Part shown: in pieces, positions 42,752 to 62,266 of the stretch
How positions within the stretch are numbered: the stretch's first letter is position 1
Layout of the letters: every line of letters starts with the position of its first letter
IMG/VR virus record: IMGVR_UViG_3300023079_000004
Coordinates: 1 to 62,375 of that record
Direction: 5' to 3' (one strand)
Source of the DNA: a virus
Lineage: Duplodnaviria; Caudoviricetes
DNA length: 62,375 bases
The notes under the pieces: model-generated
Databases searched by the model: none
What the model was told of the DNA's origin: nothing
What the model saw: the letters and a program-made list of their open reading frames with translations, nothing else
Made by a program: the position numbers and the translations under genes

Positions 42752-42945
42752 CGTAACAGCAGGAGACAGGTAAGGGAGCGATGGGGCTGCTGGCCCTGCC
42801 TCCGTGACTGTTGCCGGGGCACCCACGGTCTGGTGCGTTGCAGGGGGAGCGGGCTTCGTCAGGAGGCTCCTTCCACGGGTCTGGGGCACACCGCCCCTCC
42901 CGCTTCCCCTGCTCCCTCATCCACACACGCAGAGAGAAGGCTGCC

Positions 42946-46720: not shown

Positions 46721-49579
46721 ATGGGTCGTCGGGGCGAAGGGTGGCGGGGCAAGTTCACCCAATGGCTCGTGCGGGAAGAGAAGGACGGGGAGACCCGCGC
46801 GTACTGCCCCTTGCACGAGGACCCGCTCAGCAGCAAGACGCCGAGCGCCAGCTTCAACTTCAAGACCGGCAAGTTCATGTGCTTCAGCCGGTGCGGCGGG
46901 TACGCCGTCAGTCAGGTCTGGCAACTCCTCCAGGAGGGCACCGAGCCCGAGCGCAAGGTAGAGCAGCGTCAGCCGAAGGACGAGGTGGCGGAGGCTCGCC
47001 GCAAGCGGCGCGCACGGGCCGAGGGGCGCACGGTGGCTCTGCCGACGGAGGACGAAGTTGCCGAGTGGCGGGACCGCCTCCAGGGCAAGCAAGACCTCCT
47101 GCGAGAGATCCTGGTCAAGCGTGGCCTCCAACGCTCCACCTTGCGCCGGTACGACATCGGCTGGGACGGAGAACGACTCGTCATCCCGGTCCGTGACGAG
47201 GCGGGGCAACTGGTGAACCTTCGCCGGTACGGCATGGGTCTCCGGGCTAACAAGATGGTCAACTGGCCCGGGTACGGCGATGCCACGCTCTACGGGCTGG
47301 ACGCCCTGACGCAGCGCCGCGTCATCCTGTCCGAAGGTGAGATGGACAAGCTGATCCTTCGGCAGTACCGCTTCCCGAGCCTGACAGCTACGGCCGGAGC
47401 GGGCACGTGGTTCAGCGAGTGGAACCGCTACTTTGCAGGCAAGATCGTCTACATCTGCTATGACGTCGACGAGGGTGGAGAGAACGGCGCGCGCAAGGTG
47501 GCCAACGAGCTGCGCGTTGCGGCTCAGGCGGTCCACATCATCAAGCTACCGTTGCAGGCCAAGGGTAGCGACGTCACGGACTACTTCGTGCACCAGGGGC
47601 ACGGACGCCAGAGCTTCATCGATCTGATGAAAGCCACACCGCCGTACCGGGAGCGCAAGCTCAGCCGGGAACGCGCGCGGACGGCTACCGAGGTGCCCGA
47701 GGTGCGCATGCGCAACAGCTTCGACCCGGGGCTCCTGGACAAGCCCATCAGCATGGTGGCAACCATCTCCGGTCGTAGTGCCACCCCGACTGCCCTCCCT
47801 CGCAGGATCGAGCTGACCTGTGGGATGGACTGGCAGAAGACGAAGTGCGCCAAATGTCCGATGGAGAACCTGTGGGGCGGTCAGCACAAGCACGAGGTCC
47901 CGGCTGACGACCGGCTGGTCCTCAAGATGATGGACATGCCGGACGACAAGCGAGGCGCTGAAGTCCTGCGCGCACTGGAGATCCCGAGCACCTGCCCGAA
48001 GGTGGAGTTCACTTTGCACGACCAGTGGCGCATCGACGAGCTGGCCGTGGTACCGAACATCGATGACCCGGACGAGGGTGAAGGCGAGCAGGTGCTCCGG
48101 CGCATCTTCAACGTGACGGAGCAGGGGAAGCTCACGCCGGTCAACACCACCGCTCGGCTCACCGGGGTCAGCACGGCCAACCCGAAGAACGGGCAGGTGG
48201 TCTTCCAGAGCTGGGACATGCAAGAGACGAAGACCAGCCTGGACCGCTTCGTCATGACGGAGGAGCTGCGTGGAGCACTGGAGGATGTCTTCCAGCCGGG
48301 ACCAGCACAGACGCCAATGGATAAGCTCACCGAGCTGGCTCGGGACCTGGCTGCCAATGTCACACACATTTACGGACGACCCGAACTGCACATTGCATAC
48401 GACCTCGTCTGGCATTCTGTCCTGGACTTTCCCTTCCGGGGTAGTCGTCTCGGCAAGGGTTGGCTCGAGCTACTGGTCATGGGAGACACCAGGACGGGCA
48501 AGAGTGAAGCGGCAGAGCGACTGCGGCACCACTATCAGTGTGGTGTACTCAAGAGCTGCGAAGGGGCTACCCTCGCGGGACTTGTCGGTGGCGCTCAACA
48601 GATTGGCAATAGCTGGGTCATCACCTGGGGCACCATCCCGCTCCAAGACCGGCGTCTTGTCATCCTTGACGAGGTGTCCGGCATGCAGGACAAGAACATC
48701 ATCGAACAGATGAGCGCGGTACGCAGCTCTGGCCGGGCACAGGTGAGCAAGATCGTCAGCCAGGAGACGTTCGCCCGAACGCGAACCATCTGGCTGGGCA
48801 ACCCGGTGGACGGCCGCAGCATTCGGGAGCACAACAACGGAGCCATCGACGCCATCCAGAAACTCATCCCGAACCCCGAAGACATCGCGCGGTTCGACTT
48901 GGCGATGGTGGCCGCGCAAGCCGACGTCAACAGCACCGTCATCAATGCCGCCACCCCACCCCGCGCTCCTCGCAGGGCTACGCAGGCGCTGAGTAGCGCG
49001 CTGGTGACGTGGGCGTGGAGTCGGACGGCCGAGGAGGTGCTGTGGGGCAAGGGCGTCGAGCGCCGAGTGCTGACTGCGGCGGAGGAGCTGGGGAGGCGGT
49101 ACATTCCCGACCCACCACTCATCCAGCCGGAGAACGTGCGCGTGAAGCTGGCTCGCCTCGCGGTGGCCATTGCCGCGCGGCTGTTCAGCCATGACGGCAC
49201 CGGGCAGAAGGTCCTCGTGCAAGAGGAGCACGTCCGGGCTGCCGTTGAGTTCCTGGACGATCTGTACGGCCGTCGGTGGTTCGGGTATGCCGACCACAGT
49301 CGCAAGGAGCTCCGGGCACGGGCCGCCGCCGAGGAAAACGTCAACGCCTGCAAGGCGATGCTCGTCAGCCACGACGGCATCCTGGACACCTTGAAGACGG
49401 TAATCAACGACACGCAATTCCGAGCCCGCGACTTCGAGGAGTTCGGCGGGATGGACAAAGACATGGCCGGTCAGGCGGTGTCTTCCCTGCTGACCATGGG
49501 TATGGTTCGTAGGCGTGCCAAGGGGTACATCAACATGATGCCGGAGCTGATCGGCATCGTTAGGGATCTGGAGAGCTGA
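46721..49579 (+). CDS. Primase-helicase: CHC2 Zn finger + TOPRIM + MCM-like AAA+
   Basis: CPLHED..C...C; SEGEMD and YDVD; GDTRTGKS, ILDE and RFDL. Confidence 0.9.
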   Translation: MGRRGEGWRGKFTQWLVREEKDGETRAYCPLHEDPLSSKTPSASFNFKTGKFMCFSRCGGYAVSQVWQLLQEGTEPERKVEQRQPKDEVAEARRKRRARAEGRTVALPTEDEVAEWRDRLQGKQDLLREILVKRGLQRSTLRRYDIGWDGERLVIPVRDEAGQLVNLRRYGMGLRANKMVNWPGYGDATLYGLDALTQRRVILSEGEMDKLILRQYRFPSLTATAGAGTWFSEWNRYFAGKIVYICYDVDEGGENGARKVANELRVAAQAVHIIKLPLQAKGSDVTDYFVHQGHGRQSFIDLMKATPPYRERKLSRERARTATEVPEVRMRNSFDPGLLDKPISMVATISGRSATPTALPRRIELTCGMDWQKTKCAKCPMENLWGGQHKHEVPADDRLVLKMMDMPDDKRGAEVLRALEIPSTCPKVEFTLHDQWRIDELAVVPNIDDPDEGEGEQVLRRIFNVTEQGKLTPVNTTARLTGVSTANPKNGQVVFQSWDMQETKTSLDRFVMTEELRGALEDVFQPGPAQTPMDKLTELARDLAANVTHIYGRPELHIAYDLVWHSVLDFPFRGSRLGKGWLELLVMGDTRTGKSEAAERLRHHYQCGVLKSCEGATLAGLVGGAQQIGNSWVITWGTIPLQDRRLVILDEVSGMQDKNIIEQMSAVRSSGRAQVSKIVSQETFARTRTIWLGNPVDGRSIREHNNGAIDAIQKLIPNPEDIARFDLAMVAAQADVNSTVINAATPPRAPRRATQALSSALVTWAWSRTAEEVLWGKGVERRVLTAAEELGRRYIPDPPLIQPENVRVKLARLAVAIAARLFSHDGTGQKVLVQEEHVRAAVEFLDDLYGRRWFGYADHSRKELRARAAAEENVNACKAMLVSHDGILDTLKTVINDTQFRARDFEEFGGMDKDMAGQAVSSLLTMGMVRRRAKGYINMMPELIGIVRDLES

Positions 49580-50436
49580 TGTTCGGTAGACCGAGGAACG
49601 TCTACATTCTCGGGGCTGGCCCGGCTGCCCTGCTGGCTGCGCATGCGGTGCGCGAGGTGCACCCCCGGGCAAAGGTTATTCTCTTCAGCATGCCGGACCA
49701 CGCGCTCGGTCGGGCCAAGAAGAGCGAGCTGCACGGCTGCCAGTATCTCCACCAGTACATCCCGGACCTCGGCCTCCCGCAGGAGGGGGCGACGGTGCGG
49801 TACGAGGTGCTCGGGCCGTACGAGGGGTACCGCGAGAAGGTGTACGGGCAGAACTGGACGGGCAACACGAGCGTCGACGAGTACGGCCCGGAGCAGACGC
49901 ACGAGGCGTGGGACCTCCGGCAGGCGTACGAGGTCCTCTGGGCCACCTTCGAGCCGTTCGTCTTCCCCACGTTGGTGAACTCGGCGGTGCTCCGCCCGCT
50001 GCTCGACGACCGCAACGGCATCGTCTTCAGCACTGTCCCGCAGCGCAGCCTCTGCATCAACCCGGACCACGAGTTCAAGACGCAGGACGTGTGGGCGATG
50101 GGCAGCAAGGTTCATCTGAAGGTTGACCCTTCTCATGGTGCTGGACCGGGGTTCACGCCGAGTGGCATGCCCTACCGGGCACCCGACATGACGGTGCAGT
50201 GCAACGGCAACCGCGACACCGCGTGGTACCGCGCGGCTACCGTGTTCGGCCACAGCACGCTCGAGTGGCCGCTGGCTAAGAAGCCGCCGGTACCCGGGGT
50301 CGCGGCCGTCAAGAAGCCGCTGAGCACCGATTGTGACTGCTGGCCGGGCATGGTGCGCCTCGGCCGGTACGGCACGTGGAAGAAGGGTGTGCTGGTGCAC
50401 ACCGCGTACAACGAGGTTGCGGAGAAGTTGCGATGA
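49579..50436 (+). CDS. FAD-dependent oxidoreductase-like protein
   Basis: ILGAGPAALLAA Rossmann loop; C-terminal LGRYGTW (UDP-galactopyranose mutase-like GR motif). Confidence 0.75.
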   Translation: MFGRPRNVYILGAGPAALLAAHAVREVHPRAKVILFSMPDHALGRAKKSELHGCQYLHQYIPDLGLPQEGATVRYEVLGPYEGYREKVYGQNWTGNTSVDEYGPEQTHEAWDLRQAYEVLWATFEPFVFPTLVNSAVLRPLLDDRNGIVFSTVPQRSLCINPDHEFKTQDVWAMGSKVHLKVDPSHGAGPGFTPSGMPYRAPDMTVQCNGNRDTAWYRAATVFGHSTLEWPLAKKPPVPGVAAVKKPLSTDCDCWPGMVRLGRYGTWKKGVLVHTAYNEVAEKLR

Positions 50437-50702
50437 AGAGTCGGTGGGAGCAGGCGAGCCGCGTCGAGCGCATCCCGGAGCAGGAGAAGAACACCCACGA
50501 CGCCGGGCCGTTCACTGGCACTCCCGGTACGCCGGGGGCGCTGGCATGCTGCATGCCGGTGGTCCTTGCGTGGTTCCTCCCGGGGCACGCCGGGCTGCGT
50601 CTGGTGGGTGTGCGGCACATCGGTCCGGGGTGCCGAGGGAGGGTCGAGCGCATCGACGTCGGCTACTGGCTGACGCGCGGGCGGTGGAGGAAGCCGCGAT
50701 GA
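50433..50702 (+). CDS. Hypothetical protein
   Basis: ATGA overlaps on both sides. Confidence 0.5.
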   Translation: MKSRWEQASRVERIPEQEKNTHDAGPFTGTPGTPGALACCMPVVLAWFLPGHAGLRLVGVRHIGPGCRGRVERIDVGYWLTRGRWRKPR

Positions 50703-51358
50703 GGCCGGTGATTGCCCTCGACGTCGATGGCACCCTGGTGGACTACCACGCGCACTTCACCGAGTTCGCCGTGCAGTACTTCGACTTGGACATGGAGCAC
50801 TTCGCCTTCGAGAAGTACGACGCTCGGATGCCCTTCTACAAGTTTCTCGGCATCAGCAAGGAGAAGTACCGCCAGTGCAAGATGGCGTACCGGCGCGGGG
50901 AGCTGAAGCGTTCGGTACCGCTTCTTCCTCAGCCATACCCCGACGCCCCCACCCTCACGAAGCAGCTCCGGCTCTGGGGCGTTGACATCTGGCTCTGCAC
51001 GACGCGGCCGTACCTTGCGTACGACGCCATCGACAGCGCCACTCGGCACAATCTGAAACGACATGGAATCTCCTACCAGGGCATTATCTGGGGCGAACGC
51101 AAGTACCATGAACTGGTACGCACGGTGGGCCGCGAGCGCATCGTGGGTGTGTTGGACGACCTTCCCGCCATGTGTGATCAGGCAGTGCGGCTCAGAATGC
51201 GTACAGCGCTGGCGGTCAGGCCGCACAACGAAATGCAGATGCTCGGCTATCAGGGTCCGGGAACTTTCCCCGGCAACTTGCCGTGGGAAGCGGCAAGAAC
51301 GCACGACGACACGCTGGCGCTGTTCAGGCGCTGGCTCACAGACTGGAGAGGCAAGTGA
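50699..51358 (+). CDS. HAD-family 5'(3')-deoxyribonucleotidase-like protein
   Basis: ALDVDGTL, CTTRP, K, VLDD and RPHN. Confidence 0.85.
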   Translation: MRPVIALDVDGTLVDYHAHFTEFAVQYFDLDMEHFAFEKYDARMPFYKFLGISKEKYRQCKMAYRRGELKRSVPLLPQPYPDAPTLTKQLRLWGVDIWLCTTRPYLAYDAIDSATRHNLKRHGISYQGIIWGERKYHELVRTVGRERIVGVLDDLPAMCDQAVRLRMRTALAVRPHNEMQMLGYQGPGTFPGNLPWEAARTHDDTLALFRRWLTDWRGK

Positions 51359-51768
51359 CCATCGACGTCGCGCCCGTAACCTTTCGGGCGTTCGTGTTGC
51401 AGCGGGGACAGCGCACCGACACCATTCAGGGGCGTCAGTACCGGGTCAGCACCGACCACAAAGGGCGGACGGTCATCGGTCCGGCCCGACACCGCAAGAT
51501 GAGCTCGGAGCCGAAGGCCCGGGAGGTAGACCCGGCAGCCGTCACGGCCGCGTTCAGCCGGATCAGGACGCCCTGGCCCGCCCCTCCTCCGCAGAAGCCC
51601 AGCCGCTGGCAGCGCGTCAAGGACCGGGTGGCGGCTGCGTGGGATCTTTTCACCGACCCGGACTGGCACCGACTCGTGCAGCACGTGGCGGTGGACGTCC
51701 TCGTCTGGGCGCTGGCCATCGGCGTCGTGGGCCTGGTGTCCCGAGCGCTGTACTGGGCGTGGTCGTGA
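51355..51768 (+). CDS. Membrane protein
   Basis: C-terminal TM; GTGA overlap. Confidence 0.6.
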   Translation: MTIDVAPVTFRAFVLQRGQRTDTIQGRQYRVSTDHKGRTVIGPARHRKMSSEPKAREVDPAAVTAAFSRIRTPWPAPPPQKPSRWQRVKDRVAAAWDLFTDPDWHRLVQHVAVDVLVWALAIGVVGLVSRALYWAWS

Positions 51769-52271
51769 TGTTGAGCCATGTCTTTCGTACGAGGCCCGGA
51801 GACGGCAACGAGAGCGGGTGCTCGTACACCGAGCTCATGATGCTGTGCGGGAAGGCTCCCGAGGACCCCATCCACGGCAGAAAGATCGAGGTTCTCGGGG
51901 AGAGGGTGAGGCCGTCGGAGGGCGGGGAAGAGCCGGTGGTCATCTACCACTCTCAGACCCCGGCGCTGGTGGCGTGGGACAGCTTCTCGGCCGAGGTGCG
52001 AGCCCTCATCGCCAAGAAGAGCGAGGGTTACGGCAACGCGTGGCAGGAGCAGGGCTACATGGGCAACCTGGCCCGCATCCTCAGCAAGACCGCGCGCTTG
52101 CGGAACATGCTCTGGCGGGAAAACCCCTGGCTCGGTACGGGTGGCGACGAGGCTAGCGAAGAGCAAGAGTCTGCGCTCGACACCCTGCACGACATGGCTG
52201 CGCTCTGCGCGTTCTTCGTCGCCAACCTTCGGATGGGCCAGAGGTGGGGTCGCCGTGGCAATGATTCCTGA
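51768..52271 (+). CDS. Nmad1/DUF1599-like all-alpha NTP pyrophosphatase with N-terminal H-C-C-H module
   Basis: KK..GYGNAW...G...RI..K..RL and ES..DTL.D.A. Confidence 0.75.
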   Translation: MLSHVFRTRPGDGNESGCSYTELMMLCGKAPEDPIHGRKIEVLGERVRPSEGGEEPVVIYHSQTPALVAWDSFSAEVRALIAKKSEGYGNAWQEQGYMGNLARILSKTARLRNMLWRENPWLGTGGDEASEEQESALDTLHDMAALCAFFVANLRMGQRWGRRGNDS

Positions 52272-52515
52272 GGCGCACCGCCTGCATGAGAACGGGTCTC
52301 CCGAACGCATCGAGTACGTGTCCAACGAAAACGGCTCGATGCAGGTGCACTTCTGCATGAGGTGCCACCGGGTTGTGGCGGCGCAGTGCGAGCACGACAA
52401 GAACACGTGGCACGACGCGAAGGGCGACCCGATCCCCAAGGAAGAGATCCTTGGGGAAGGCGGTCGGCGGGCCGTTCGGCTGACGTGTGACCTGTGCGGG
52501 GCGGACGGCACATGA
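52261..52515 (+). CDS. Small zinc-binding protein
   Basis: CMRC, CEH and CDLCG.DGT. Confidence 0.65.
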   Translation: MIPEAHRLHENGSPERIEYVSNENGSMQVHFCMRCHRVVAAQCEHDKNTWHDAKGDPIPKEEILGEGGRRAVRLTCDLCGADGT

Positions 52516-53153
52516 GCCCCTCCCTAGCAACCGAAGTGGGTCGACGTACGCTGCTGAACCGGCTGTACGCCGAGTACGCCGACGACCCCGCCTTCGCGCA
52601 CATGCTCCCGCACACCAACGGCGTCGTGCCCGGTGACGGCCCCACACGCCCTCGGCTGGTGTTCGTGGGCGAAGCACCGGGTAGCCACGAGGACAAGCAG
52701 CGCAAGCCGTTCGTCGGTGCCAGCGGTCGGTTCCTCGACAAGCTCCTGGCCTCCGTCAAGCTCTCCCGGGAGGAGATCTTCATCACCAACACGGTGAAGA
52801 TTCGCCCGGTGGTCCTGCGCGGGAAGGTGGGGTCGGGCAATCGACCCCCGACCGAGGAGGAGAAGCTGGCGAGCATCCCGTACTTGCGCCGAGAGATGCG
52901 CCTTCTGGGGTACCCGCCTATCGTCGTACTCGGCAAGCACGCCAAGGGTGCCATGGCCCGGCTCCCGGAGCGGGGTTACGATCTCGGAGACCCGGCGCTC
53001 GCCATGAAGCTGGGCGAGTGGAACACGGTGCTCGGGGTACCGATGCTGCCGCTGCATCACCCGGCATACGGCATCTACCAGCAGGCCAACCAACCCATGA
53101 TGTTCGACATGTTCAAGAAGGTCCTCGAAGCCCCGGGAGGGCGGTTGCGATGA
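52512..53153 (+). CDS. Uracil-DNA glycosylase, family 4-like
   Basis: VGEAPG..ED....PFVG.SG, ITN.VK.RP, NR.PT and HPAY. Confidence 0.9.
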   Translation: MSPSLATEVGRRTLLNRLYAEYADDPAFAHMLPHTNGVVPGDGPTRPRLVFVGEAPGSHEDKQRKPFVGASGRFLDKLLASVKLSREEIFITNTVKIRPVVLRGKVGSGNRPPTEEEKLASIPYLRREMRLLGYPPIVVLGKHAKGAMARLPERGYDLGDPALAMKLGEWNTVLGVPMLPLHHPAYGIYQQANQPMMFDMFKKVLEAPGGRLR

Positions 53154-53647
53154 AGCTCAGCGACGGAACGCTGCGCAAGCTGGTCGAGCGGGGAGACATC
53201 GAGTTCGTGCCGGGGTTGACCGACCAGCAATGGCAACCCTGCTCCGTGGACCTACGCCTCGGTACGAGCTTCCAGTCGCCCGGCAAGCCTCGGCTCATCA
53301 CCAGCTCCTACAAACTGCACCCCGGGGAGTTCGTGCTGGGGTGTACCCAGGAGCGGGTACGCCTCGGACGGGCATTCATGGGGCAGGTGGAGGGCCGGAG
53401 TACCTGGGCGCGACGCGGTCTTCAGGTGCATGCCGCCGGGCTGGTAGACCCCGGCTTCGACGGGGAGCTGACGCTGGAGTTGGTGAATCTGGGCTCCTTC
53501 CCCCTCGCCCTCTCCGCAGGAGAGCGCATCTGCCAGATGACCATCGAGCGGCTGGACTGGCCTGCGGTCCGTCCGTATGGTCACGCGGCTCTCGGCTCGA
53601 AGTACCAGCACCAGATCGGCGCTACGTCCGCCTCCGAGCACGAGTAG
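53150..53647 (+). CDS. dcd: dCTP deaminase
   Basis: QP.SVDLRLG, GRSTWARRGL, VDPGFDGELTLEL, RICQ and SKYQ.Q. Confidence 0.93.
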   Translation: MKLSDGTLRKLVERGDIEFVPGLTDQQWQPCSVDLRLGTSFQSPGKPRLITSSYKLHPGEFVLGCTQERVRLGRAFMGQVEGRSTWARRGLQVHAAGLVDPGFDGELTLELVNLGSFPLALSAGERICQMTIERLDWPAVRPYGHAALGSKYQHQIGATSASEHE

Positions 53648-53652
53648 GGGAC

Positions 53653-53850
53653 ATGCCTCTCATTGCCAGGAAGAAGATGCTGGCACTTCTCCCGCCGTGC
53701 ACCTGTGGGCGTGGGGCTTATCCGCCCGACGATGAGTTCGGCCGCACGTGGTGGTATGCCCTGTCGAGCTCGTGTGCTCGATGCTGGCCGGAGGCAGACT
53801 ACTGGCTGCGCATCGGCGTACTGATCCGGGAGGGCACCCTGTGGCTCTGA
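53653..53850 (+). CDS. Small Cys-rich protein
   Basis: CTCG...CARC; fills the gap. Confidence 0.5.
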   Translation: MPLIARKKMLALLPPCTCGRGAYPPDDEFGRTWWYALSSSCARCWPEADYWLRIGVLIREGTLWL

Positions 53851-56800
53851 CGCACGTGAATCTGCACGGGCACACGACCTTCAGCCCGGGGGACGGGTAC
53901 GCCATGCCGGACGCCCACGTGAAGGCGGCGGCCGAGCTGGGGCAACCGGCTATCGCCTTCACCGAGCATGGGAACGTGAGCAGCCACGTGAAGGGTGAGC
54001 GTGCTGCCGATGCGGCTGGGATGAAGTTCATCCCCGGGTGCGAACTGTACTGCGACACCGGTGATGCACGTGGCCAGACCAAGCATCATCTCACGGTGCT
54101 GGCCGCCAGTCCGCGCGGACTGGGCAATCTGTACTCGGTGGTCACGAAGAGCTGGGACAACTTCCACTTCAAGCCGACGGCAACCGGAGAGATGCTGGCC
54201 GACCACCACGAGGATCTCATCGTGCTTTCCGGGTGTCTGGGTGGGCGGTTGGCCACAGCGGTCATGGGAGGGAAGGGTGAAGAGGACAAGGTTCAGGCGG
54301 ACTTACGGGCGGGTGCGCGCGTCGCTGCACAGTTCCGCGAGGTGTTCGGTGACCGATACTATCTGGAGGTGCAGGCGCACCCACTCCTCGATCGTCAGCG
54401 AGCGTATAACCGCGCAGTTGCGCGCATCGGGCAGCGACTGGGAATACCTCTGGTCGCAACGGGTGATGTGCATTACCCGACGGAGCGGGACCAGGACATC
54501 TACCCAATTCTGCACGCCATCGATCGAGGCGGCTCCCGCAACACGGTCGAGGCGCAGTCGCAGAGCTGGGAGTACGGGCTGGTCCTGGCGCACCAGAGCA
54601 GTGACACCATGTATCGGGGACTCCTGGACACCGGCCTCACTCGTCGGGAGGCACGAGGGGCTCTGTCCCGAACGCTGGAGATAGCCGACCGGGTAGACGT
54701 CCGGCTCCCCAAGCTGAAGGACCTCGAGTACCCCGACGAGCGCCCGAGCGCCGACGTCATGATGGAGTGGCTGCGGCGTGGCTGGCGGTATCGCGGGCTG
54801 CACACGCTGAACCGGGAGGACCGGCGTCGGTACCTGGACCGTCTGCGGTACGAGACGAAGCTCATCGTGGACAAGGGTTTCGTGGACTACTTCCTCGTCA
54901 TCGCCGACATGGTGGTCTATAGCAAGACGAACGGGATCCCGGTGGGTCCGGCGCGTGGTTCGGCGGCGGCGAGCCTCGTGTGCTGGCTGTTGCGCATCAC
55001 CGAAGTCAACCCGATGCTGTTCCCCAACCTCATCTTCGAAAGGTTCATCGACATCAACCGGCACGACCTGCCGGACGTGGACCTGGACTTCGACGACGAG
55101 CTGCGCTACAAGGTGCGCGAGTACCTCGTGGAGAAGTACGGCGCGGAGCGGGTGGGCAACATCGGAACCTTCACGATGTACCGGGGCAAGAACAGTCTCG
55201 AAGAAGTGGCGAAGGTGTTCCGCATCCCGCTCTCTGCGGTGGAGGAAGTGAAGGGCGGGTTGCTGGAGCGCTCGTCCGGCGACCTCCGGTACGGCCAGAC
55301 CATCGAGGACAGCCGCGCGCTCTTCCCTAAGGTCGATGCGGTGTTCAAGCGGTACCCGGACCTTCGGCACGCGCAACGCCTCGAGGGCAACCTGAAAGGC
55401 TTCAGCGTGCACGCGGCGGGGCTGGTCGTGGCCAACGGTGCCCTGACCGAGGCCCTGGCGGTATACGTGCGATACAAGCCGGACAAGAAAAAGCCGCGCG
55501 GTGAGAAAATCGGCGAGGCCCTGAGCATCGACAAGTACGACGCCGAGTACCTGAACGTGCTCAAGATCGATGCGCTGGGCTTGAAGACGATGGGCCTCAT
55601 TCGCCGAGCTCTCGAGATGATCGGCATGAGCCTGGAAGAGCTGTATGCGGTACCGCTGGACGATGAGAAGGTGTACGAGGCTTTTCGCGCCAACCGTGTC
55701 ATCGGCGTCTTTCAGTTCGACGGCCGCGCGATGCGTAGCGTCAACCGGGAGGTCAAGCCTGATACCTTCGCGGAGATATGTGACATCAACGCGCTGGCCC
55801 GCCCCGGTCCGCTGCACTCTGGCGCTGCGGCTGAGTACATCATGGCGAAGCACGGCAAGAAGCCCGTCGAGAAGCTTCACCCGGTAGTCTCGGAGATCAC
55901 GGCGCACACCAACGGCCAGATCGTGTACCAGGAGCAGATCCTCCGGGTGGTCCGGGAGCTCGGCGGCTTCACGTGGGAAGAGGCCGCGCACGTTCGGAAG
56001 CTGATCAGCAAGAAGCAGGGCGAGCAGGCGTTCAACCGGTTGCAGAAGCTCTTCATGGAGGGTTCGGCGGCCCGCGGGGTGCGGGAAGCTGTGGCCGCGA
56101 AGGTGTGGAAGCAGCTCGTGACGGCAGGCGCGTACGCCTTCAACGCGGCGCACTGCGTCAGCTATGGGATGCTGGCCTACTGGACGATGTGGCTCAAGGT
56201 GAACCACCCGCTGGCCTTCTACTGCGCGGCACTCATCAAGTACAAGGGGGACAAGAAGAACGACAAGACGCTGGACATCCTGAAGGAGGCCACCGCCGCC
56301 GGGATCAAGATCGTGCCGCCGGACCCGGAGCTGAGCGACTTGTCCTGGCGGGTGTGCGCTGATGCTCTCGTGGCTGGCTTCACCCAGGTCCGGGGCATCG
56401 GCGAGAGCACTGCCCGCGCGATGCTAGCGTACCGCGAGGCGTTGCCGCCCAACACGGTGGGGAGCTGGGACACCTACCTCAATGTCAAGGGTATCGGACC
56501 CAAGACGATGGAGACCGTGAAGGCGTTCTGCGCGGAGCGGGATCCCTTTGGCATCAACGTGTTGCGGGAGCGGCTCGACAAGATGCGTTGGTGGCTCGGC
56601 GAGAACGGCGAGCGGTACGGCCTCCCCTACCCCTCCTCTCGCAGCGAGGACGTGCCCTACGAAGCCATTCGTGGCGAGCACACATGGGTGGGGAAGGTGG
56701 TGCACCGCAACCTGAAGGACATCTACGAGCTGCATCGCTCGCGGACTGGCGAGGAGCTTGACCCGAAGAAGGTCAAGGAGCCGCAGTACGTCAACTACGT

Positions 56801-56999
56801 CGTCATCACCGGGGAAGACGAGACGGGGCCGCTGGTCATCACGGTCCACCGGTACGGTGGTCTGTACGAGAAGTACAAGGAGGACATCTGGGACATCGAC
56901 CCGGACCGGGATCTGTTGCTGGTCCGGGGATACAAGCGCACGGAGTACCGTCGCGCCCTGTATGCCACCGAGCTACACGTCTTGACCGTGGAGGAATGA
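53841..56999 (+). CDS. dnaE: DNA polymerase III alpha subunit (DnaE-like) with PHP domain
   Basis: LHGHT.FS..DG, TEHG, DVHY; GPARGSAAASLV; PDVDLD; KIDALGL; RPGP; YAFNAAH. Confidence 0.97.
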   Translation: MALTHVNLHGHTTFSPGDGYAMPDAHVKAAAELGQPAIAFTEHGNVSSHVKGERAADAAGMKFIPGCELYCDTGDARGQTKHHLTVLAASPRGLGNLYSVVTKSWDNFHFKPTATGEMLADHHEDLIVLSGCLGGRLATAVMGGKGEEDKVQADLRAGARVAAQFREVFGDRYYLEVQAHPLLDRQRAYNRAVARIGQRLGIPLVATGDVHYPTERDQDIYPILHAIDRGGSRNTVEAQSQSWEYGLVLAHQSSDTMYRGLLDTGLTRREARGALSRTLEIADRVDVRLPKLKDLEYPDERPSADVMMEWLRRGWRYRGLHTLNREDRRRYLDRLRYETKLIVDKGFVDYFLVIADMVVYSKTNGIPVGPARGSAAASLVCWLLRITEVNPMLFPNLIFERFIDINRHDLPDVDLDFDDELRYKVREYLVEKYGAERVGNIGTFTMYRGKNSLEEVAKVFRIPLSAVEEVKGGLLERSSGDLRYGQTIEDSRALFPKVDAVFKRYPDLRHAQRLEGNLKGFSVHAAGLVVANGALTEALAVYVRYKPDKKKPRGEKIGEALSIDKYDAEYLNVLKIDALGLKTMGLIRRALEMIGMSLEELYAVPLDDEKVYEAFRANRVIGVFQFDGRAMRSVNREVKPDTFAEICDINALARPGPLHSGAAAEYIMAKHGKKPVEKLHPVVSEITAHTNGQIVYQEQILRVVRELGGFTWEEAAHVRKLISKKQGEQAFNRLQKLFMEGSAARGVREAVAAKVWKQLVTAGAYAFNAAHCVSYGMLAYWTMWLKVNHPLAFYCAALIKYKGDKKNDKTLDILKEATAAGIKIVPPDPELSDLSWRVCADALVAGFTQVRGIGESTARAMLAYREALPPNTVGSWDTYLNVKGIGPKTMETVKAFCAERDPFGINVLRERLDKMRWWLGENGERYGLPYPSSRSEDVPYEAIRGEHTWVGKVVHRNLKDIYELHRSRTGEELDPKKVKEPQYVNYVVITGEDETGPLVITVHRYGGLYEKYKEDIWDIDPDRDLLLVRGYKRTEYRRALYATELHVLTVEE

Positions 57000-57736
57000 T
57001 GAACCTGTACGACCAGAACCCGAACGTGCCGCAGGAGACGAGCCCGCTGTGGTTCGACCTTTCGGCCACCATGTACGACAACCTCAAGACCCTCGACCGC
57101 TGGATGGCCTACTACAGCGGCCGGTTGCCGCGTGGCATCGTCATCGACGAGGCCAGCATCCTGACCCGTACCGAGACCAACATGCAGAACGCCGCCGCGT
57201 ATCTGCGAGAGGCGGGGTGGGAGGAGTTCAACACCGCGACGGACCTCGTCTTCACCAATCCGTTCGGCACCCGGTACACCGTGGAGTACCGCTTCTTCAG
57301 CAACCCCCACGTCTTCTTCCGGCTGGAGTTGATGCGCCTGACGGGGGGCTTCAGTCCGTTGCACCGAGCCTTGCTCGAAGCTCCCCGCTTGAACTCCATG
57401 AGCTGGCCGGTGCCGCACCTGAGCTTCAAGCCGCAGCGCCGTGCACTGGGTGGTCTCCTTCCCGGCGAGAAGGAGAGGCCGCACCGGATGCAGACGTGGC
57501 GCGGTGCGTACGGTGAAGCGGTGCAGTATCTCCGGGACAACGCCTGCATTCACGCGCAGAGCTGCCAGAGCACCTACGGCCAGTTCGGGTACTTCCTCGG
57601 CAACGACGCCGCCCGGCAGGTCTACATCAAGCCGCGCATCAACTTGCGGGACGGCGAGGTCATGCACAGCATGTGCACCGTCGACAATAACGATGGGTGC
57701 CTCGTCGACCACAGCGTCACCCGGAGGCCCGTGTGA
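56996..57736 (+). CDS. Hypothetical enzyme, possible VOC/glyoxalase-like fold
   Basis: IDE.., RLELM and HLSFK spacing is reminiscent of VOC metal ligands; weak. Confidence 0.5.
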   Translation: MMNLYDQNPNVPQETSPLWFDLSATMYDNLKTLDRWMAYYSGRLPRGIVIDEASILTRTETNMQNAAAYLREAGWEEFNTATDLVFTNPFGTRYTVEYRFFSNPHVFFRLELMRLTGGFSPLHRALLEAPRLNSMSWPVPHLSFKPQRRALGGLLPGEKERPHRMQTWRGAYGEAVQYLRDNACIHAQSCQSTYGQFGYFLGNDAARQVYIKPRINLRDGEVMHSMCTVDNNDGCLVDHSVTRRPV

Positions 57737-58410
57737 AGAAGCGGGTGCTGGTCGTGGGGGCACGGCCGAACAGTCTCGGAGAAGCAGTTGCGAACGTGGC
57801 CAGTCGGCGGGGCTATCAGGTGGTCACGGCCGGTATCTCCGGCGAGGATGTCCGCCTGAACCTGCTCTCGAGCGTGACGGAGATCGAGGTGCTGCGCGGC
57901 ATCCTCCAGGGCATCGATCCGCACCACGTCGTGTGCACCGTCGGCATCAATCAGCCGGAGGCACACGAGGACGCGGACGTGAGCTGGTGGATGCGTGCGC
58001 ACTTCGAGGCGAACGTCATCGCGCCGCTCCGCCTGTTGGACGCGTGGATGCCGGTGGCTAGCATGGGGCACTACGTGGCCGTGAGCAGCAACAGCGCGCG
58101 CATCCCGCGCACCCGGAGCATGGCGTACTGCGCGTCGAAGGCGGCCCTGAGCATGGCGTTGCGGGTGCGAGCCCGGGAGCTCGGGGGTGCGCCGGTGGTG
58201 TACGGCTACGAGCCCGGCCTGCTGCTCGGTACTCCGATGACAGAGAAGACGGCCGCTGGCTTCACGGGACCGCTGACGCGCATGAAGGTGCCGGAGCTGG
58301 CGCGCGGTATCGTCGTCGACGATCTCGCTGAGCTGATGGTCCAGAACCTCGGGCACTCGGGCCTCGCCCTCAACGGCACCCTGATTCCCTACGACGCCGA
58401 TGAGCTGTAA
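57733..58410 (+). CDS. Short-chain dehydrogenase/reductase
   Basis: VLVVGA...SLG, AN, VSS and YCASK. Confidence 0.88.
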   Translation: MKKRVLVVGARPNSLGEAVANVASRRGYQVVTAGISGEDVRLNLLSSVTEIEVLRGILQGIDPHHVVCTVGINQPEAHEDADVSWWMRAHFEANVIAPLRLLDAWMPVASMGHYVAVSSNSARIPRTRSMAYCASKAALSMALRVRARELGGAPVVYGYEPGLLLGTPMTEKTAAGFTGPLTRMKVPELARGIVVDDLAELMVQNLGHSGLALNGTLIPYDADEL

Positions 58411-58462
58411 CTGGAGTCGTTCGCCGGTTGCTTTCTGTGGTACGACCCGGTTAGATAGGGGC

Positions 58463-58639
58463 ATGAGCAAAGAGAAGACGCACTGGCTCACCTATCTGGG
58501 GAAGCGTCGGCCGGAGACCCTGGCCGACAACCGGCAGTGGGGCGAACCGGGGACCGGGCCGTACCGGAAGCCCCAGCCGCACGCCAACCCAAAGGGCGTT
58601 CAGGGACATGCATTGGGGAGGGGTAACCGTGGGCAGTGA
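58463..58639 (+). CDS. Hypothetical basic protein
   Basis: AGGGG RBS; fills the gap. Confidence 0.45.
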   Translation: MSKEKTHWLTYLGKRRPETLADNRQWGEPGTGPYRKPQPHANPKGVQGHALGRGNRGQ

Positions 58640-58820
58640 CTGGCTCGAGGGGCCGCGTAGTCCGATGGACTTCGGCCGGGGGAGCTCCGGCGACTCGGGT
58701 ACGAGCGGCGGCGGCAACAGCAAGTTCGCTGCGTTCGGCATGCTGGCGTTCATCGCCGGTCCGGCCGGTCTGGTCCTCGGACTGGCGGCCTACCTGGCAC
58801 ACGGGTACGGCCTCATCTAG
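58629..58820 (+). CDS. Gly-rich small membrane protein
   Basis: GGAGG RBS; C-terminal TM. Confidence 0.6.
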   Translation: MGSDWLEGPRSPMDFGRGSSGDSGTSGGGNSKFAAFGMLAFIAGPAGLVLGLAAYLAHGYGLI

Positions 58821-58850
58821 CACCATGACAGCCGGGAAAGACCGGCACCT

Positions 58851-58970
58851 GCAAGGGATGCGCTCAGTTTCGGGTGATAGCTGACCCCGGCGGCAGAGCG
58901 GACCGATGGCCCCGGGGAACAGCACCCCGGGGTACAGGCCAGATCGCGGGTTCGAGTCCCGCCCCTTGCA
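58851..58970 (+). ncRNA. tRNA-like RNA 2 with extended anticodon arm and D-loop insertion
   Basis: Acceptor GCAAGGG/CCCTTGC; D stem CGCTC/GAGCG around AGTT[hairpin]CGGCA; variable AGATC; T arm GCGGG-TTCGAGT-CCCGC. Confidence 0.72.
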
Positions 58971-58994
58971 CGCAGCACGGAGGAGAAGGCCGTG

Positions 58995-59008
58995 CACTAC
59001 CCGGGAGG
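58995..59008 (+). promoter_or_regulatory. Leader/SD motif copy
   Basis: CACTACCCGGGAGG 6 nt before GTG 59015. Confidence 0.7.
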
Positions 59009-59014
59009 GGAATC

Positions 59015-59128
59015 GTGAGCTGGGAGTTTGTCTGGCAATTGATGCTGCTGAGCCTGTGGGCCGCCTTGATGGTGGTTCTCGTGGGCAACAGCCTGCGCAA
59101 CCCGAGCAAGGACAAGGAGAAGCTGTGA
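59015..59128 (+). CDS. Small membrane protein
   Basis: 37 aa, single TM. Confidence 0.6.
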   Translation: MSWEFVWQLMLLSLWAALMVVLVGNSLRNPSKDKEKL

Positions 59129-60438
59129 CCGACGAGTTCATCATGGACCACGCCTTCCGGGGCCAGGACCCCCAGCGCTGCGGTTACGCCTATCGCGAGC
59201 AAGGTGGGGCGGGGTGGGAAGCCTGGACGGAGCAGTCCTTCTGCAACCGGCCGAGCAGCGAGCACGCCGTGCCGGGGCCGAGCACCGGGCACCTCATCAA
59301 CACCCACCCGCATGACTTCGTGCCGAACCCGGAGAGCGCCACCTCGTGCGACTACAGGGTCAGCGACTCCGGGAGCGAGGACGCCAACGACAACGGCGTG
59401 TGGCGCATCTGCGGGTACCCCGAGCAGGCGCACGCCTGGGCCGCCGAGGACCGGCGCAAGGCTGCGCGGAAGTGGGCGGGGGAGGTGGTTCGCGTGGCTG
59501 ACGTGGCGCAGTACGCCCGGGAGCCGCTGCCGGACGCCGCGCGGCGCGGACCGGTCGTGACGCTGGTCGACGCGCCGCTGGACCCGCTCGGGACGCTGGC
59601 CACCGTGGTCGGCATCTACACCGGGCAGGTGAACCGCTCGAAGAGCGAGGTGACAGACGAGCAGCGTCGGGCGGCGCTGGCCGACATGCAGAAGACGGTG
59701 CTGGACGGACCCCTCGAGGCCGTGCAGTTCACCTTCCTGGTGGAGGGTGTGCAGCGAGACATCACGCACCAGATGGTGCGCAACCGCTTCAGCTTCTTCG
59801 CGCAAGAGAGCCTCCGGTTTGCGGTCGCGGAGGACTGGGCGCAGGAGGTCCCCCTCCCGCCCGGCCTCGCAGGGCTGCGCGACGACGACCCCCGGGTGAG
59901 CCTGTGGCGCAAGGCCATGAACCAGGCCGAAGACGCCTATGCGGCGCTGCTCGGGGCTGGGCTGGCGGCCGAGGAAGCCCGCAAGGTGCTGCCGCACGCC
60001 ATGCCCACCCGCATCTTCTGGGTGTGTTCGCTGCGCACGTTGCTGGCGGAGGCCGGGAAGCGCACCTGCACGCAGGCTCAGTTCGAGTGGCGGCAGATCT
60101 TTGCCGGGGTGGCGAAGGCGCTGCGTGACCACGGGCAGATGCGTAAGCTGGACGCTCGTACGGACGGCGTGAAAGACGGCTGGCAGTACCGCGCGTTCGC
60201 CGACCTGATGCGGCCGGTGTGCTATCAGCAGGGCAAGTGCGGGTTCATGGCCAAGTTCGACCGGGGCTGCACCATCCGGGCTCGGGTCGACGCCTTCGAG
60301 CGGGCGGGTGTGCCCTCTTCGGAGTGGGGCGTGCGGTACACCGGTCCGACCGGCCCCGGCCACGACCACGCCAGCATCCCGGCCATCGATCCCCGGGAGT
60401 GGGCGGCGGACCCGACGGCCGCGCGGGTGGTGGAGTGA
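59125..60438 (+). CDS. thyX: ThyX-like flavin-dependent thymidylate synthase with two N-terminal H-C-C-H modules
   Basis: PLE...FTF.VEGV.R..THQMVRNR..S..QESLRF, EEARKVLP and AQ.E.R. Confidence 0.85.
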   Translation: MTDEFIMDHAFRGQDPQRCGYAYREQGGAGWEAWTEQSFCNRPSSEHAVPGPSTGHLINTHPHDFVPNPESATSCDYRVSDSGSEDANDNGVWRICGYPEQAHAWAAEDRRKAARKWAGEVVRVADVAQYAREPLPDAARRGPVVTLVDAPLDPLGTLATVVGIYTGQVNRSKSEVTDEQRRAALADMQKTVLDGPLEAVQFTFLVEGVQRDITHQMVRNRFSFFAQESLRFAVAEDWAQEVPLPPGLAGLRDDDPRVSLWRKAMNQAEDAYAALLGAGLAAEEARKVLPHAMPTRIFWVCSLRTLLAEAGKRTCTQAQFEWRQIFAGVAKALRDHGQMRKLDARTDGVKDGWQYRAFADLMRPVCYQQGKCGFMAKFDRGCTIRARVDAFERAGVPSSEWGVRYTGPTGPGHDHASIPAIDPREWAADPTAARVVE

Positions 60439-60665
60439 TGTGGCGGAAGCGCGACCCCTACGCCTTCCCCTGGTTTTGGTTCGTCTTCTGGACGGTGGTC
60501 GGGATCGTGGTTGTCTTCGGCGGCTCCTGGCTGGTCGTGGACTACGTGTGGAGGCACGACATGCGGGCGGCTGAGGCGGACTGCGCACAGTACGGCGCGG
60601 TCCCGCACTACACCTACCGCACCCGATACCTCTGTCTCTTGCCGGACGGAAGGGTGGCGAAGTGA
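60435..60665 (+). CDS. Membrane protein
   Basis: N-terminal TM; C-x..C.LPDG tail. Confidence 0.65.
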   Translation: MMWRKRDPYAFPWFWFVFWTVVGIVVVFGGSWLVVDYVWRHDMRAAEADCAQYGAVPHYTYRTRYLCLLPDGRVAK

Positions 60666-61063
60666 TGTGGTGGCTGGTCGTTGTGTCCGTGGTGGCTGAC
60701 GTGATGATTGTGATCAGCCTGCTGCGGATGCGGCAGGAGACTCGGGAAGACGAGCGCTGGAAGCGGGAACGCCGGGCGCGTCGGCAGGCTCACGTGCTGG
60801 GGTTGCCCTGGCCGGAGGAGGAGAACATGTCCAAGAAGAACAACAGCGGGGCTAGCGGCGGGTACATCAGCAAGAACAGCGGTCGCAGCAACTACCGTGG
60901 CGGCAAGAACAACAGCCGCGCGGCGTCGGGGAACCGGTACGGCAATCAGCGTGGCCCGGGTTCGGGTGGTGCCGGTGGCGCGATGCTCTGGCTGGCGGTG
61001 GCGCTCCTCGGGTTGCCGGTGGCCGTGGTCGGGCTGGTCCTGGGGTACTTGGTGGTGACCTGA
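60662..61063 (+). CDS. Membrane protein (possible internal start at 60827)
   Basis: TM at both ends; strong internal RBS GAGGAGGAG before ATG 60827. Confidence 0.6.
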   Translation: MMWWLVVVSVVADVMIVISLLRMRQETREDERWKRERRARRQAHVLGLPWPEEENMSKKNNSGASGGYISKNSGRSNYRGGKNNSRAASGNRYGNQRGPGSGGAGGAMLWLAVALLGLPVAVVGLVLGYLVVT

Positions 61064-61380
61064 TGGGTAAGCGGTTGGTTCGAGACCGGGCTCTCGACAA
61101 CTGGGTGGTGCCCGGGGCCGAGCATCAGGTACGGCCGGTGCACAACGTGGCCGAGCACTGGCAGCTCCTGCGCGAGAAGCTGCACGAGGAGTGCGGGGAG
61201 GCCCTCTTCGCCGAGACAGACGCCGAGGTGGTCAAGGAGCTGGCGGACATGCTCAGCGTCATGCAGGCGATGGCCGCGTCGCGGGGTGTCGACTGGCGTC
61301 GGGTGCAAGACGAGCAGTTCAAGCGAGACACACGGGGCGGCGGGTTCTTCGCCGGAATGGTGTGGGAGACCAGCAGATGA
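61063..61380 (+). CDS. MazG-like / PRA-PH nucleotide pyrophosphohydrolase
   Basis: RLVRD, KLHEECGE, ELADML and KR..RGG.F. Confidence 0.85.
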   Translation: MGKRLVRDRALDNWVVPGAEHQVRPVHNVAEHWQLLREKLHEECGEALFAETDAEVVKELADMLSVMQAMAASRGVDWRRVQDEQFKRDTRGGGFFAGMVWETSR

Positions 61381-61391
61381 GAGGGAGAGAC

Positions 61392-61640
61392 ATGGCTAGC
61401 ACCGAGAAGAAGCACTACACCGTCAACGTCCACGTCGCGGAGGTAACCCGGACGGTTCAGACCGGGTTGGCCGGTGGTCCGACCGCCGACCGGCAGGTCG
61501 AGGATGTGCTGACGGCAACGTTGCGCGGGAAGAACCTCGCCGAGGCCCTCCGCTCCGCCATCAAGCACCTGGAGATCGAACTCGAGGACATCGGCGAGGA
61601 GCCCTCCCCGGTGCGCCCGGAGCGGGGGTCTTACGCGTGA
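61392..61640 (+). CDS. Hypothetical protein
   Basis: GAGGGAG RBS. Confidence 0.7.
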   Translation: MASTEKKHYTVNVHVAEVTRTVQTGLAGGPTADRQVEDVLTATLRGKNLAEALRSAIKHLEIELEDIGEEPSPVRPERGSYA

Positions 61641-62266
61641 ACAAGCAAGAGGCCCTCGAGGCCATCCTGACGGAGGTCCGCCGCCTGGAAGGCGGGACGG
61701 CGGAGCGGGTGCCGCTGGCCGGTGAGCGCGCGGTGCTGGCGAAGGAGGTGACCGAGATGGGAGACGCCCGGACCCTGACCGCCCCCTCGCAGCGCTACCG
61801 CCTGGTGCGGCTGGCGGCGGTCTGCCTGCACCTCCTGCGCGACGAGGCGGGGGCGGCAGAAGAGGTCGTCGGGGATGCGTACTACTTCGCCGCCCGGTAC
61901 GACCGGCATGCCGAGATGCGCCAGTACCGAGACGAGCTCCGGGCGGCTAGACCCCATGCCCGGGTAACGTCTACGTGGATCGACCCGCCGGAGGGGTCCG
62001 AGGAGGACCTGCCGTTGGACGCGCTCGACACGGCTCCCGCCTGGGGCGTGGCGCAGCTCTGCTACCGGGACATCGCGCGGGCGGACACCTTGGTGAGCTT
62101 CAACGGTCCGGTGGGTCGTGGTGGTCGACAGATCGAGTACGGGTACGCCCGTGCCCTCGGGAAGCGCATCGTGCTCATCGGCGGTCGGGAGACCGTCTTC
62201 CACGCCGAACCCGGGGTTATGGTCTATCCCTCGTGGTCGGCCTTCTTGAAGGTGGAGGCCCCCTGA
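61637..62266 (+). CDS. Nucleoside 2-deoxyribosyltransferase / nucleotide N-hydrolase-like protein
   Basis: YFAA, DIARAD.LV and GG..IEYGYA.ALGK.I. Confidence 0.75.
   Translation: MNKQEALEAILTEVRRLEGGTAERVPLAGERAVLAKEVTEMGDARTLTAPSQRYRLVRLAAVCLHLLRDEAGAAEEVVGDAYYFAARYDRHAEMRQYRDELRAARPHARVTSTWIDPPEGSEEDLPLDALDTAPAWGVAQLCYRDIARADTLVSFNGPVGRGGRQIEYGYARALGKRIVLIGGRETVFHAEPGVMVYPSWSAFLKVEAP

Follow-up and report, generated by a model that had tools for sequence, protein, structure and literature searches.

What does a phage gain from a run of nucleotide enzymes packed around its own DNA polymerase: a new DNA base, or ordinary thymidylate made by an unusual route? The question is raised by positions 49,579 to 62,266 of the virus genome IMGVR_UViG_3300023079_000004 (IMG/VR), whose 62,375 bp, hereafter the window, constitute a complete genome (CheckV 100%). 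Its G+C content is 65%, its likely genes all lie on the + strand, and those of the module discussed here are closely packed, their stop and start codons frequently overlapping. The initial annotation, made from the sequence alone, saw in this module an uncharacterised base-modification pathway that builds a reduced or sugar-derived side chain on a deoxyuridine derivative. As judged from sequence comparison, the module is a real and widely conserved set of nucleotide enzymes around the polymerase DnaE, based on a rewired ThyX-type enzyme and a virus-only flavoprotein. Of the proposed pathway, the enzymes, a core that travels together and the unusual ThyX thus stand; there is no evidence here for modified DNA, and nothing points to a side chain of either kind. 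The reading we prefer, with a probability of about 0.4, is that of a phage-specific module that works on the pool of pyrimidine deoxynucleotides ahead of replication and supplies the phage's own DnaE, its product being ordinary dTMP or, at most, an alteration that leaves the DNA unshielded.

A gene core shared by distant phages

The following genes are central to the argument:

49579..50436, + strand: marker gene of the module, coding for a small virus-only flavoprotein of 285 aa (FAD/NAD Rossmann; phrog_8720 E 1.8e-64; weak PF13450)
50699..51358, + strand: HAD-superfamily phosphatase, putative nucleotidase (PF00702 E 9.4e-5; phrog_415 E 3.3e-16)
53748..56999, + strand: DnaE-type DNA polymerase III alpha with PHP, NTPase, finger and HhH domains, start codon uncertain
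57733..58410, + strand: classical short-chain dehydrogenase/reductase, SDR (PF00106 E 1.3e-11, 44.7 bits, cut-off 26.6)
59125..60438, + strand: ThyX-like protein of 437 aa, with an N-terminal Cys/His-rich extension, a Thy1 core and a C-terminal extension containing conserved Cys (PF02511 E 1e-29)

Used as a query for related loci, the single flavoprotein sequence retrieved nothing; an alignment of its family fetched 80 IMG/VR loci, which together with five annotated phage loci make a set of 85. All window proteins were scored against this set, and since the flanks span 10 kb only, the counts that follow are limited. The HAD phosphatase is present in 81 loci, DnaE in 66, the SDR and the ThyX-like protein in 46 each; further genes of the window are rarer, namely the uracil-DNA glycosylase (UDG, 19 loci), the Nmad1-like (18) and VOC-fold (15) proteins, the dCTP deaminase (Dcd, 10), the NDT-like (2) and the MazG-like protein (0). 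Among the 51 loci that have the full 10 kb downstream, DnaE is found in 51, HAD in 50, the ThyX-like gene in 42 and the SDR gene in 35, followed by the Nmad1-like protein (15), VOC (14), UDG (13) and Dcd (8). Nine full-flank loci lack a ThyX-like gene in the flank; whole records were searched for five of them, and all five contain it.

The arrangement of these genes is also constrained. HAD follows the flavoprotein at a median gap of 78 nt, flavoprotein, HAD, SDR and ThyX-like genes are contiguous in two loci (L040 and L049), and flavoprotein, HAD and ThyX-like genes in four others (L054, L055, L072 and L084), while in phage Krampus the ThyX-like gene comes directly after the flavoprotein. From the locus counts we consider the core to be flavoprotein, HAD, ThyX-like protein and DnaE, with a frequent SDR, the rest being lineage accessories. 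This core co-travels across very distant phages, at times as one contiguous operon, and is not a chance neighbourhood; wherever whole records or hits could show it, the flavoprotein was never seen without a ThyX-like gene. It had been suggested that the pathway would be in doubt if the oxidoreductase, SDR and VOC genes varied independently of ThyX among relatives. The flavoprotein does not vary in this way and the SDR does so in part; the co-occurrence of the full gene set holds for flavoprotein, HAD, ThyX-like protein and DnaE, but not for VOC and the MazG-like and NDT-like proteins, which are accessories of particular lineages.

The ThyX-like enzyme

No ThyA (PF00303) was found in the genome, so that the ThyX-like gene is its sole gene of thymidylate-synthase type. 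The protein passes the Pfam gathering score for Thy1 (104.1 bits, cut-off 24.8) and reaches solved ThyX chains at E 1.8e-9, but it falls under the equivalog cut-off of the NCBI thyX model TIGR02170 (76.8 versus 87.9 bits). Its start was first placed at 58906, giving an ORF of 510 aa. Within its first 70 codons this ORF runs across a tRNA-like cloverleaf and also a small ORF for a membrane protein, so that the start most likely lies at 59125, where a GTG codon is preceded by AAGGAG.

With canonical ThyX of about 230 aa, as exemplified by Thermotoga maritima TM0449 (PDB 1o26), the window protein has in common the Thy1 domain and the residues that bind the nucleotide and the flavin phosphate; it differs by its length of 437 aa, with extensions at both ends, by substituted residues and by four gained cysteines. 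We mapped the residues through an alignment to T. maritima ThyX, whose numbering and residue roles, including the motif RHRxxSxxxxSxR, we assume to be as generally given, and compared 39 unique family sequences. E58, Q75, R78, R80, S88, R90, R147, R165 and R174 are retained in all 39, and the Arg, Ser and Gln among them are presumably the residues of ThyX that bind dUMP and the flavin phosphate. Six other positions are replaced in all 39: H53 by L, I or R, H79 by Q, N, S, T or G, Y91 by F, A or D, H178 by Q or M, R74 by H and E86 by Q. These six we take to be important for canonical ThyX. In addition D176 is changed to C in 37 of the 39. The window protein reads RNR at the ThyX motif, and neither the canonical motif nor His53, Tyr91 or His178 is found in it.

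Cysteines 315, 366, 372 and 382 (window residues) are conserved in 30, 30, 24 and 30 of 31 aligned rows respectively, and one of the four stands in place of the canonical Asp176. Together they may form a Zn or Fe-S site. The window protein carries a further Cys/His-rich stretch of about 100 residues at its N-terminus (59125-59430), for which nearly all aligned family members have no counterpart. Pseudomonas phage PA5, a Pbunavirus, has a ThyX that the family profile detects at E 1.8e-46 and that shares the substitutions and each of the four conserved cysteines. The variant ThyX of the initial annotation is therefore upheld with a revised start. By its conserved residues it is a distinct and old clade, which probably still binds dUMP and flavin, with an altered chemistry or altered partners.

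The flavoprotein, the HAD phosphatase, the SDR and DnaE

The flavoprotein family is virus-only among Atlas clusters. It is carried by 126 phage records, with Gordonia, Microbacterium, Mycobacterium, Streptomyces, Arthrobacter and Nocardia as hosts, and has at least 219 metagenomic homologues. The AF2 model (pLDDT 89.9) has a two-domain flavoprotein fold of the GR2/PHBH/UGM type. Its top VIA match is the UDP-galactopyranose mutase (UGM) 4dsg, with Z 13.7 and an rmsd of 4.2 A over 259 aligned residues; the next rows, about one Z unit or less below it and near Z 12, are monooxygenases, protoporphyrinogen oxidases and amino-acid oxidases. As UGM is top but nearly tied with these other flavoenzymes, the fold indicates no specific function. 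The idea of a mutase-like flavoprotein thus keeps the first structural rank, and it finds no echo in the sequence families: there is no match to the GLF family (PF03275), Pfam giving nothing beyond the weak PF13450. Five Cys and four His positions show no variation across 44 aligned sequences. An identity of the TrmFO/MnmG or MnmC1/PaMx11-gp47 type was also considered; no such chain is among the structural matches listed, which leaves this identity admissible. A 280-aa protein of phage PA5 is the third-best viral structural match (Foldseek E 6.6e-9, TM 0.50). A complex prediction of the ThyX-like protein with the flavoprotein, run without controls, scored 0.00 and speaks neither for nor against binding.

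The HAD protein had been called a nucleotidase. Its HAD character is supported by phrog_415 and by a readable DxDGT motif, even if PF00702 scores 23.3 bits, under its cut-off of 26.4; the nucleotidase part is not borne out, no nucleotidase-specific match being found in Pfam, solved structures or NCBIfam, and no solved relative by sequence. In the translation of the SDR a Gly-rich dinucleotide motif and YxxxK are readable by eye. No NCBIfam model exceeds its cut-off for this protein, whose best solved match is L-xylulose reductase (4egf, E 2.2e-5) and whose weak matches include pteridine reductase (E 4.9e-5).

DnaE is recognised by PF02811 (E 5.1e-32), PF07733 (E 8.5e-60) and PF17657 (E 1.9e-42). 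It is 46-47% identical to the proteins of Streptomyces phages Gibson and Rooney, Arthrobacter phage Wollypog and Microbacterium phage Krampus; as its closest relatives are those of actinophages, the genome is that of an uncultured actinophage-like virus. The gene is a single unbroken ORF in the window and two annotated genes in Wollypog (L002, 12019-15895) and Krampus (L004, 13907-17258), those of Wollypog being separated by an HNH endonuclease gene. For the FAD oxidoreductase, the HAD protein, the UDG, the dCTP deaminase, DnaE, the SDR, the Thy1 domain and the MazG-like protein, Pfam, PHROGs and NCBIfam agree with the families first assigned. Each entry of the initial list is upheld, two of them indirectly.

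Avoided sites and the state of the DNA

Over the whole genome, 34 palindromic hexamers are expected at least 10 times each; for seven of them the depletion gives z < -4, a level that none of 2082 non-palindromic hexamers reaches. GCCGGC and GGCGCC are entirely missing (57.6 and 27.7 expected), CCGCGG occurs 5 times (38.0 expected) and GGGCCC 4 times (19.2). Three of the avoided sites contain T: CAGCTG (3 observed, 29.9 expected), CTGCAG (1 and 21.2) and AGGCCT (3 and 17.9). This avoidance, extending to the three sites with T, suggests that the DNA is presumably cut at these sites and seems exposed to restriction. It argues against a shielding base that stands in for all C or all T; on the other hand, it would be compatible with a partial or non-shielding modification. 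As a separate observation, GATC is also low, with 191 occurrences for 279 expected.

The gene content was inspected for the enzymes that a modified base might call for. The thymidylate kinase and deoxynucleoside kinase families PF02223 and PF01712 are absent from the whole genome, as the initial annotation had noticed for nucleotide kinases. Its remark that no glycosyltransferase is recognisable also holds, and extends to other transferases, for the genes scanned with Pfam, a set that lies outside the structural genes at 5.8-35 kb. In the papers retrieved, the genes of the module appear only as entries in genome announcements, and no study of the module's function was found; nor was a report of odd DNA found for the 126 phage records with the flavoprotein, in a search that left aside supplementary tables and phagesdb.

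Accessory genes of the window

Besides the core, the module includes the following genes:

51765..52271, + strand: Nmad1/DUF1599-like all-alpha protein, putative NTP pyrophosphatase type (through homologues matching PF07659)
52512..53153, + strand: uracil-DNA glycosylase of family-4 type, cysteine-free (PF03167 E 1e-29, 103.9 bits, above cut-off)
53150..53647, + strand: dCTP deaminase, Dcd (PF22769 E 7.6e-32; TIGR02274)
56996..57736, + strand: VOC-fold (glyoxalase/methylmalonyl-CoA-epimerase-like) protein (AF2 model on a 16-sequence alignment)
61063..61380, + strand: MazG-like (PRA-PH type) nucleotide pyrophosphohydrolase, accessory (PF01503 28.1 bits, above the cut-off of 21.3)
61637..62266, + strand: two-part protein whose C-terminal 130 aa or so form an NDT-superfamily-like domain, accessory (weak PF05014; profile to BcmB)

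The Nmad1-like assignment holds through relatives: 9 of 19 aligned homologues match PF07659/DUF1599 (best E 1.6e-6), but no Pfam model matches the protein of the window itself, even at E <= 10, and the family profile finds no solved relative by sequence. Dcd clearly exceeds the equivalog cut-off of TIGR02274 (131.4 versus 92.8 bits). The UDG remains under that of the family-4 model TIGR00758 (108.3 versus 125.3 bits) and its translation contains no Cys; in family-4 enzymes four Cys hold an Fe-S cluster.

The product of 56996..57736, which had been thought a possible VOC protein, clearly has the VOC fold according to its model (pLDDT 82.5). VIA aligns this model with the methylmalonyl-CoA-epimerase-like 3gm5 (Z 12.4, rmsd 2.6 A over 135 residues) and with the glyoxalase I 3hdp (Z 11.6), and the top rows of both Foldseek and VIA are VOC proteins. 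At the sequence level it has no match in Pfam, NCBIfam or the PDB, single or as a profile, and no usable Atlas match. E52, E111, H123 and H141 are invariant in the 16-sequence alignment. The gene is confined to the clade nearest the window; in all 15 loci that contain it the SDR gene comes directly after, and an Nmad1-like gene is also present.

The NDT-like assignment is weak for the single protein, with 13.8 bits and E 0.067 to PF05014 (cut-off 28.8 bits) and single-sequence E values of 0.05-0.07, and improves with a profile of three sequences, which reaches the CMP N-glycosidase BcmB (4jen) at E 3e-4 and MilB at 0.005 and aligns the invariant Glu with a Glu of the solved chain. The nearest solved relatives of the domain are thus CMP and hydroxymethyl-CMP N-glycosidases. 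The N-terminal 70-80 residues (61637-61860) match separate ORFs of 149-163 aa in two close relatives that have no NDT domain, so that the window ORF looks like a fusion. Among the five nearest complete relatives, neither the MazG-like gene nor the NDT domain is found.

Relation to known systems

The module of the window resembles a set annotated gene by gene in actinophages: oxidoreductase, nucleotidase/phosphatase, sometimes a methyltransferase, sometimes a FabG-like reductase, DnaE-like and ThyX-like proteins. Examples are Mycobacterium phage Troll4 (gp61-gp68), Gordonia phages DumpTruck and Xenia2, Microbacterium phage Krampus (gp52-57), Streptomyces phage Gibson (gp46-55) and Arthrobacter phage Wollypog (gp52-64); in Troll4 and DumpTruck a methyltransferase gene lies within the module. 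The table of the Xenia2 announcement gives gene families common to clusters D, DV, DG, EF, AE and BN (PMC11385102). Compared with five annotated actinophages, the window has the same order, with identities of 34-37% for the flavoprotein, 40-47% for DnaE, 27-38% for the ThyX-like protein and 42-47% for HAD, the latter being present in four of the five records. When the region was compared by megablast with 50,697 phage records, no nucleotide-level match emerged. Relative to the annotated actinophages, the window and its metagenomic clade add the Nmad1-like protein, the UDG, Dcd and the VOC-SDR pair, and the MazG-like and NDT-like genes are additions of the window genome alone; in the fetched stretches of the five actinophage records, none of these accessory proteins was found to have a homologue. 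The window is therefore a new and distant member, with extra accessories, of a gene set already annotated in actinophages.

A more remote likeness is found in phage PA5, whose region contains a hypothetical 281-aa protein (gp058), ThyX (gp065), a "polynucleotide kinase/phosphorylase" (gp067) and a split DnaE-type polymerase. The flavoprotein family profile finds no sequence-level match at this locus, and unlike in the window, SDR, VOC, Dcd and UDG are not among the annotations of the PA5 stretch.

The hypermodification of 5-hydroxymethyl-deoxyuridine (5-hmdU) in phages M6, ViI, PaMx11, SP10 and PhiW-14 likewise involves a relative of thymidylate synthase, tailoring enzymes and a phage polymerase, and PaMx11 gp47 is a flavin enzyme of such a thymidine pathway; these pathways start with a ThyA-type dUMP hydroxymethylase and require a 5-hmdU DNA kinase and a transferase, the aGPT-Pplase (PMC8989533). 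By contrast the window has no PF00303, and no kinase or transferase family turned up among the scanned genes, although no search was made with models of the 5-hmdU kinase or transferase. By its predicted proteins the module is different from the 5-hmdU pathways in every defining component.

What the module may make

In the reading we prefer, Dcd converts dCTP to dUTP, as its family membership indicates, and the MazG-like or Nmad1-like pyrophosphatase, or both, might convert dUTP to dUMP. The ThyX-like enzyme would add one carbon at C5 of dUMP. It would be insufficient alone, the flavoprotein, often with the SDR, acting as a redox or one-carbon helper as in a two-component flavin system. The HAD phosphatase, together with the NDT-like glycosidase in the window, might remove unwanted nucleotides, while by family membership the UDG takes uracil out of DNA and DnaE performs the replication. 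A bulky new base is not favoured as the end product, and dTMP by an unusual route is no less likely than a new base. In favour of dTMP stand the site avoidance, the missing kinase and a literature that is silent about more than 100 cultured carriers; the kinase counts here because a non-canonical dNMP would probably need one. If this reading is true, the module would represent a new enzymology, that of a two-component, cysteine-site ThyX dependent on a partner flavoprotein. ThyX has been discussed as an antibiotic target, to judge from the title of reference 67 in PMC8989533.

Several observations nevertheless weigh against dTMP and speak for a non-canonical product. The synthesis of plain dTMP requires no flavoprotein, HAD, SDR or VOC protein, so that the obligate partners of the ThyX-like enzyme are unneeded for it. 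A nucleotidase beside a relative of thymidylate synthase is a classical mark of thymidine replacement. The ThyX-like clade has systematically lost H53, R74, H79, E86, Y91 and H178 while keeping the nucleotide binders, and scores under the thyX cut-off. Furthermore the phage encodes its own polymerase, the window clade has an Nmad1-family protein, and the NDT-like domain is nearest to CMP and hydroxymethyl-CMP N-glycosidases. Finally, the variable tailoring-type genes of the relatives look like the combinatorial style of hypermodification clusters, for which PaMx11 gp47 provides a precedent of a flavin enzyme (PMC8989533), and a UDG is compatible with T-modified phages (PMC13697223).

These points would fit a pathway that, before replication, makes a 5-substituted deoxyuridine or another pyrimidine of non-canonical type. 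The ThyX-like enzyme would then form a C5-methylene intermediate without reducing it, the flavoprotein, the SDR, the VOC protein and the relatives' methyltransferase would tailor the product, HAD and the NDT-like protein would remove the canonical competitor, and host kinases and DnaE would incorporate the product, perhaps partly. We regard such a product as possible but doubtful: the phage has neither a kinase in its genome nor a transferase among its scanned genes, it strongly avoids restriction sites including those with T, the 126 carriers have, within the search described, yielded no report of odd DNA, and three of the genes (VOC, MazG-like, NDT-like) are not conserved. A related and broader proposal, that a large, cross-phylum set of phages comprising actinophages, their metagenomic kin and Pbunaviruses uses a rewired ThyX bearing a metal site, the small flavoprotein and a phosphatase to make an undescribed 5-substituted deoxyuridine, with a lineage-specific tailoring by SDR/VOC or methyltransferase, would likewise be unlikely in our estimation. 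In the two sources consulted, all pre-replicative pyrimidine modifications described in phages start from ThyA-type enzymes (PMC8989533, PMC13326640); a ThyX-based route, if true, would be new chemistry and the first flavin-dependent route to a modified DNA base. In any case the core genes are present in more than 100 cultured phages of the non-pathogenic hosts Mycobacterium smegmatis, Gordonia and Microbacterium, so that the question is directly testable and cheap to settle.

The flavoprotein, HAD and SDR, with or without VOC, might also act on something other than deoxynucleotides, such as a cofactor or small molecule (folate/pterin, flavin, one-carbon donor), RNA or host signalling nucleotides, their link to the ThyX-like enzyme being only a shared cofactor demand. 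The generic folds of SDR and flavoprotein indeed indicate no substrate, pteridine reductase is among the weak SDR matches, and HAD has no nucleotidase-specific match; but the gene order with ThyX-like protein and DnaE is tight in distant phages and no other gene of folate or flavin biosynthesis is found among those scanned, which makes this improbable. Still less credible is the absence of any common pathway, the genes being independent, replication-associated or pool-sanitising, and kept together by a conserved order of the early/middle region. These same loci also have the whole replication region in synteny (helicase, nuclease, RecA-like ATPase, DnaE), so that the co-occurrence partly reflects the shared ancestry of a genome block. 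Yet the order is reshuffled between lineages while flavoprotein, HAD, SDR and ThyX-like genes stay together, adjacent in several loci, and in PA5 a DnaE-type polymerase and a candidate structural match of the flavoprotein lie near a ThyX rewired in the same way.

Other features of the locus

The remaining features of the region are:

46721..49579, + strand: DNA primase/helicase, Toprim and MCM-type P-loop (PF13155, PF00493), just upstream of the flavoprotein
51355..51768, + strand: small protein with a hydrophobic C-terminus, no family, weak relatives in 5 of the 85 loci
52261..52515, + strand: small Cys-rich protein, possible zinc ribbon, called from ORF and sequence, found in none of the 85 loci and not conserved
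58850..58972, + strand: tRNA-like cloverleaf of 123 nt, not a called tRNA, between the SDR and ThyX-like genes

The primase/helicase, whose stop codon overlaps the start of the flavoprotein at 49579, is 40-42% identical to its counterparts in Wollypog and Krampus. An ORF at 50433-50702, between flavoprotein and HAD, has relatives in none of the loci and was left uncalled. The cloverleaf has an acceptor stem, a canonical-looking T-arm and otherwise oversized arms; the Rfam tRNA model matches its 3' part only (18.1 bits), its minimum free energy (MFE) fold has a z of -2.35, and ARAGORN does not call it.

At the left end of the genome, ahead of the large structural genes, positions 4863-5060 and 5360-5782 (+ strand) encode a protein with a MerR-type HTH and one with a prokaryotic JAB domain, next to eight ORFs without Pfam match. 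Between the helicase and nuclease genes lies a tRNA-Arg (anticodon TCT) at 42653-42752 (+ strand), unusually long with 100 nt.

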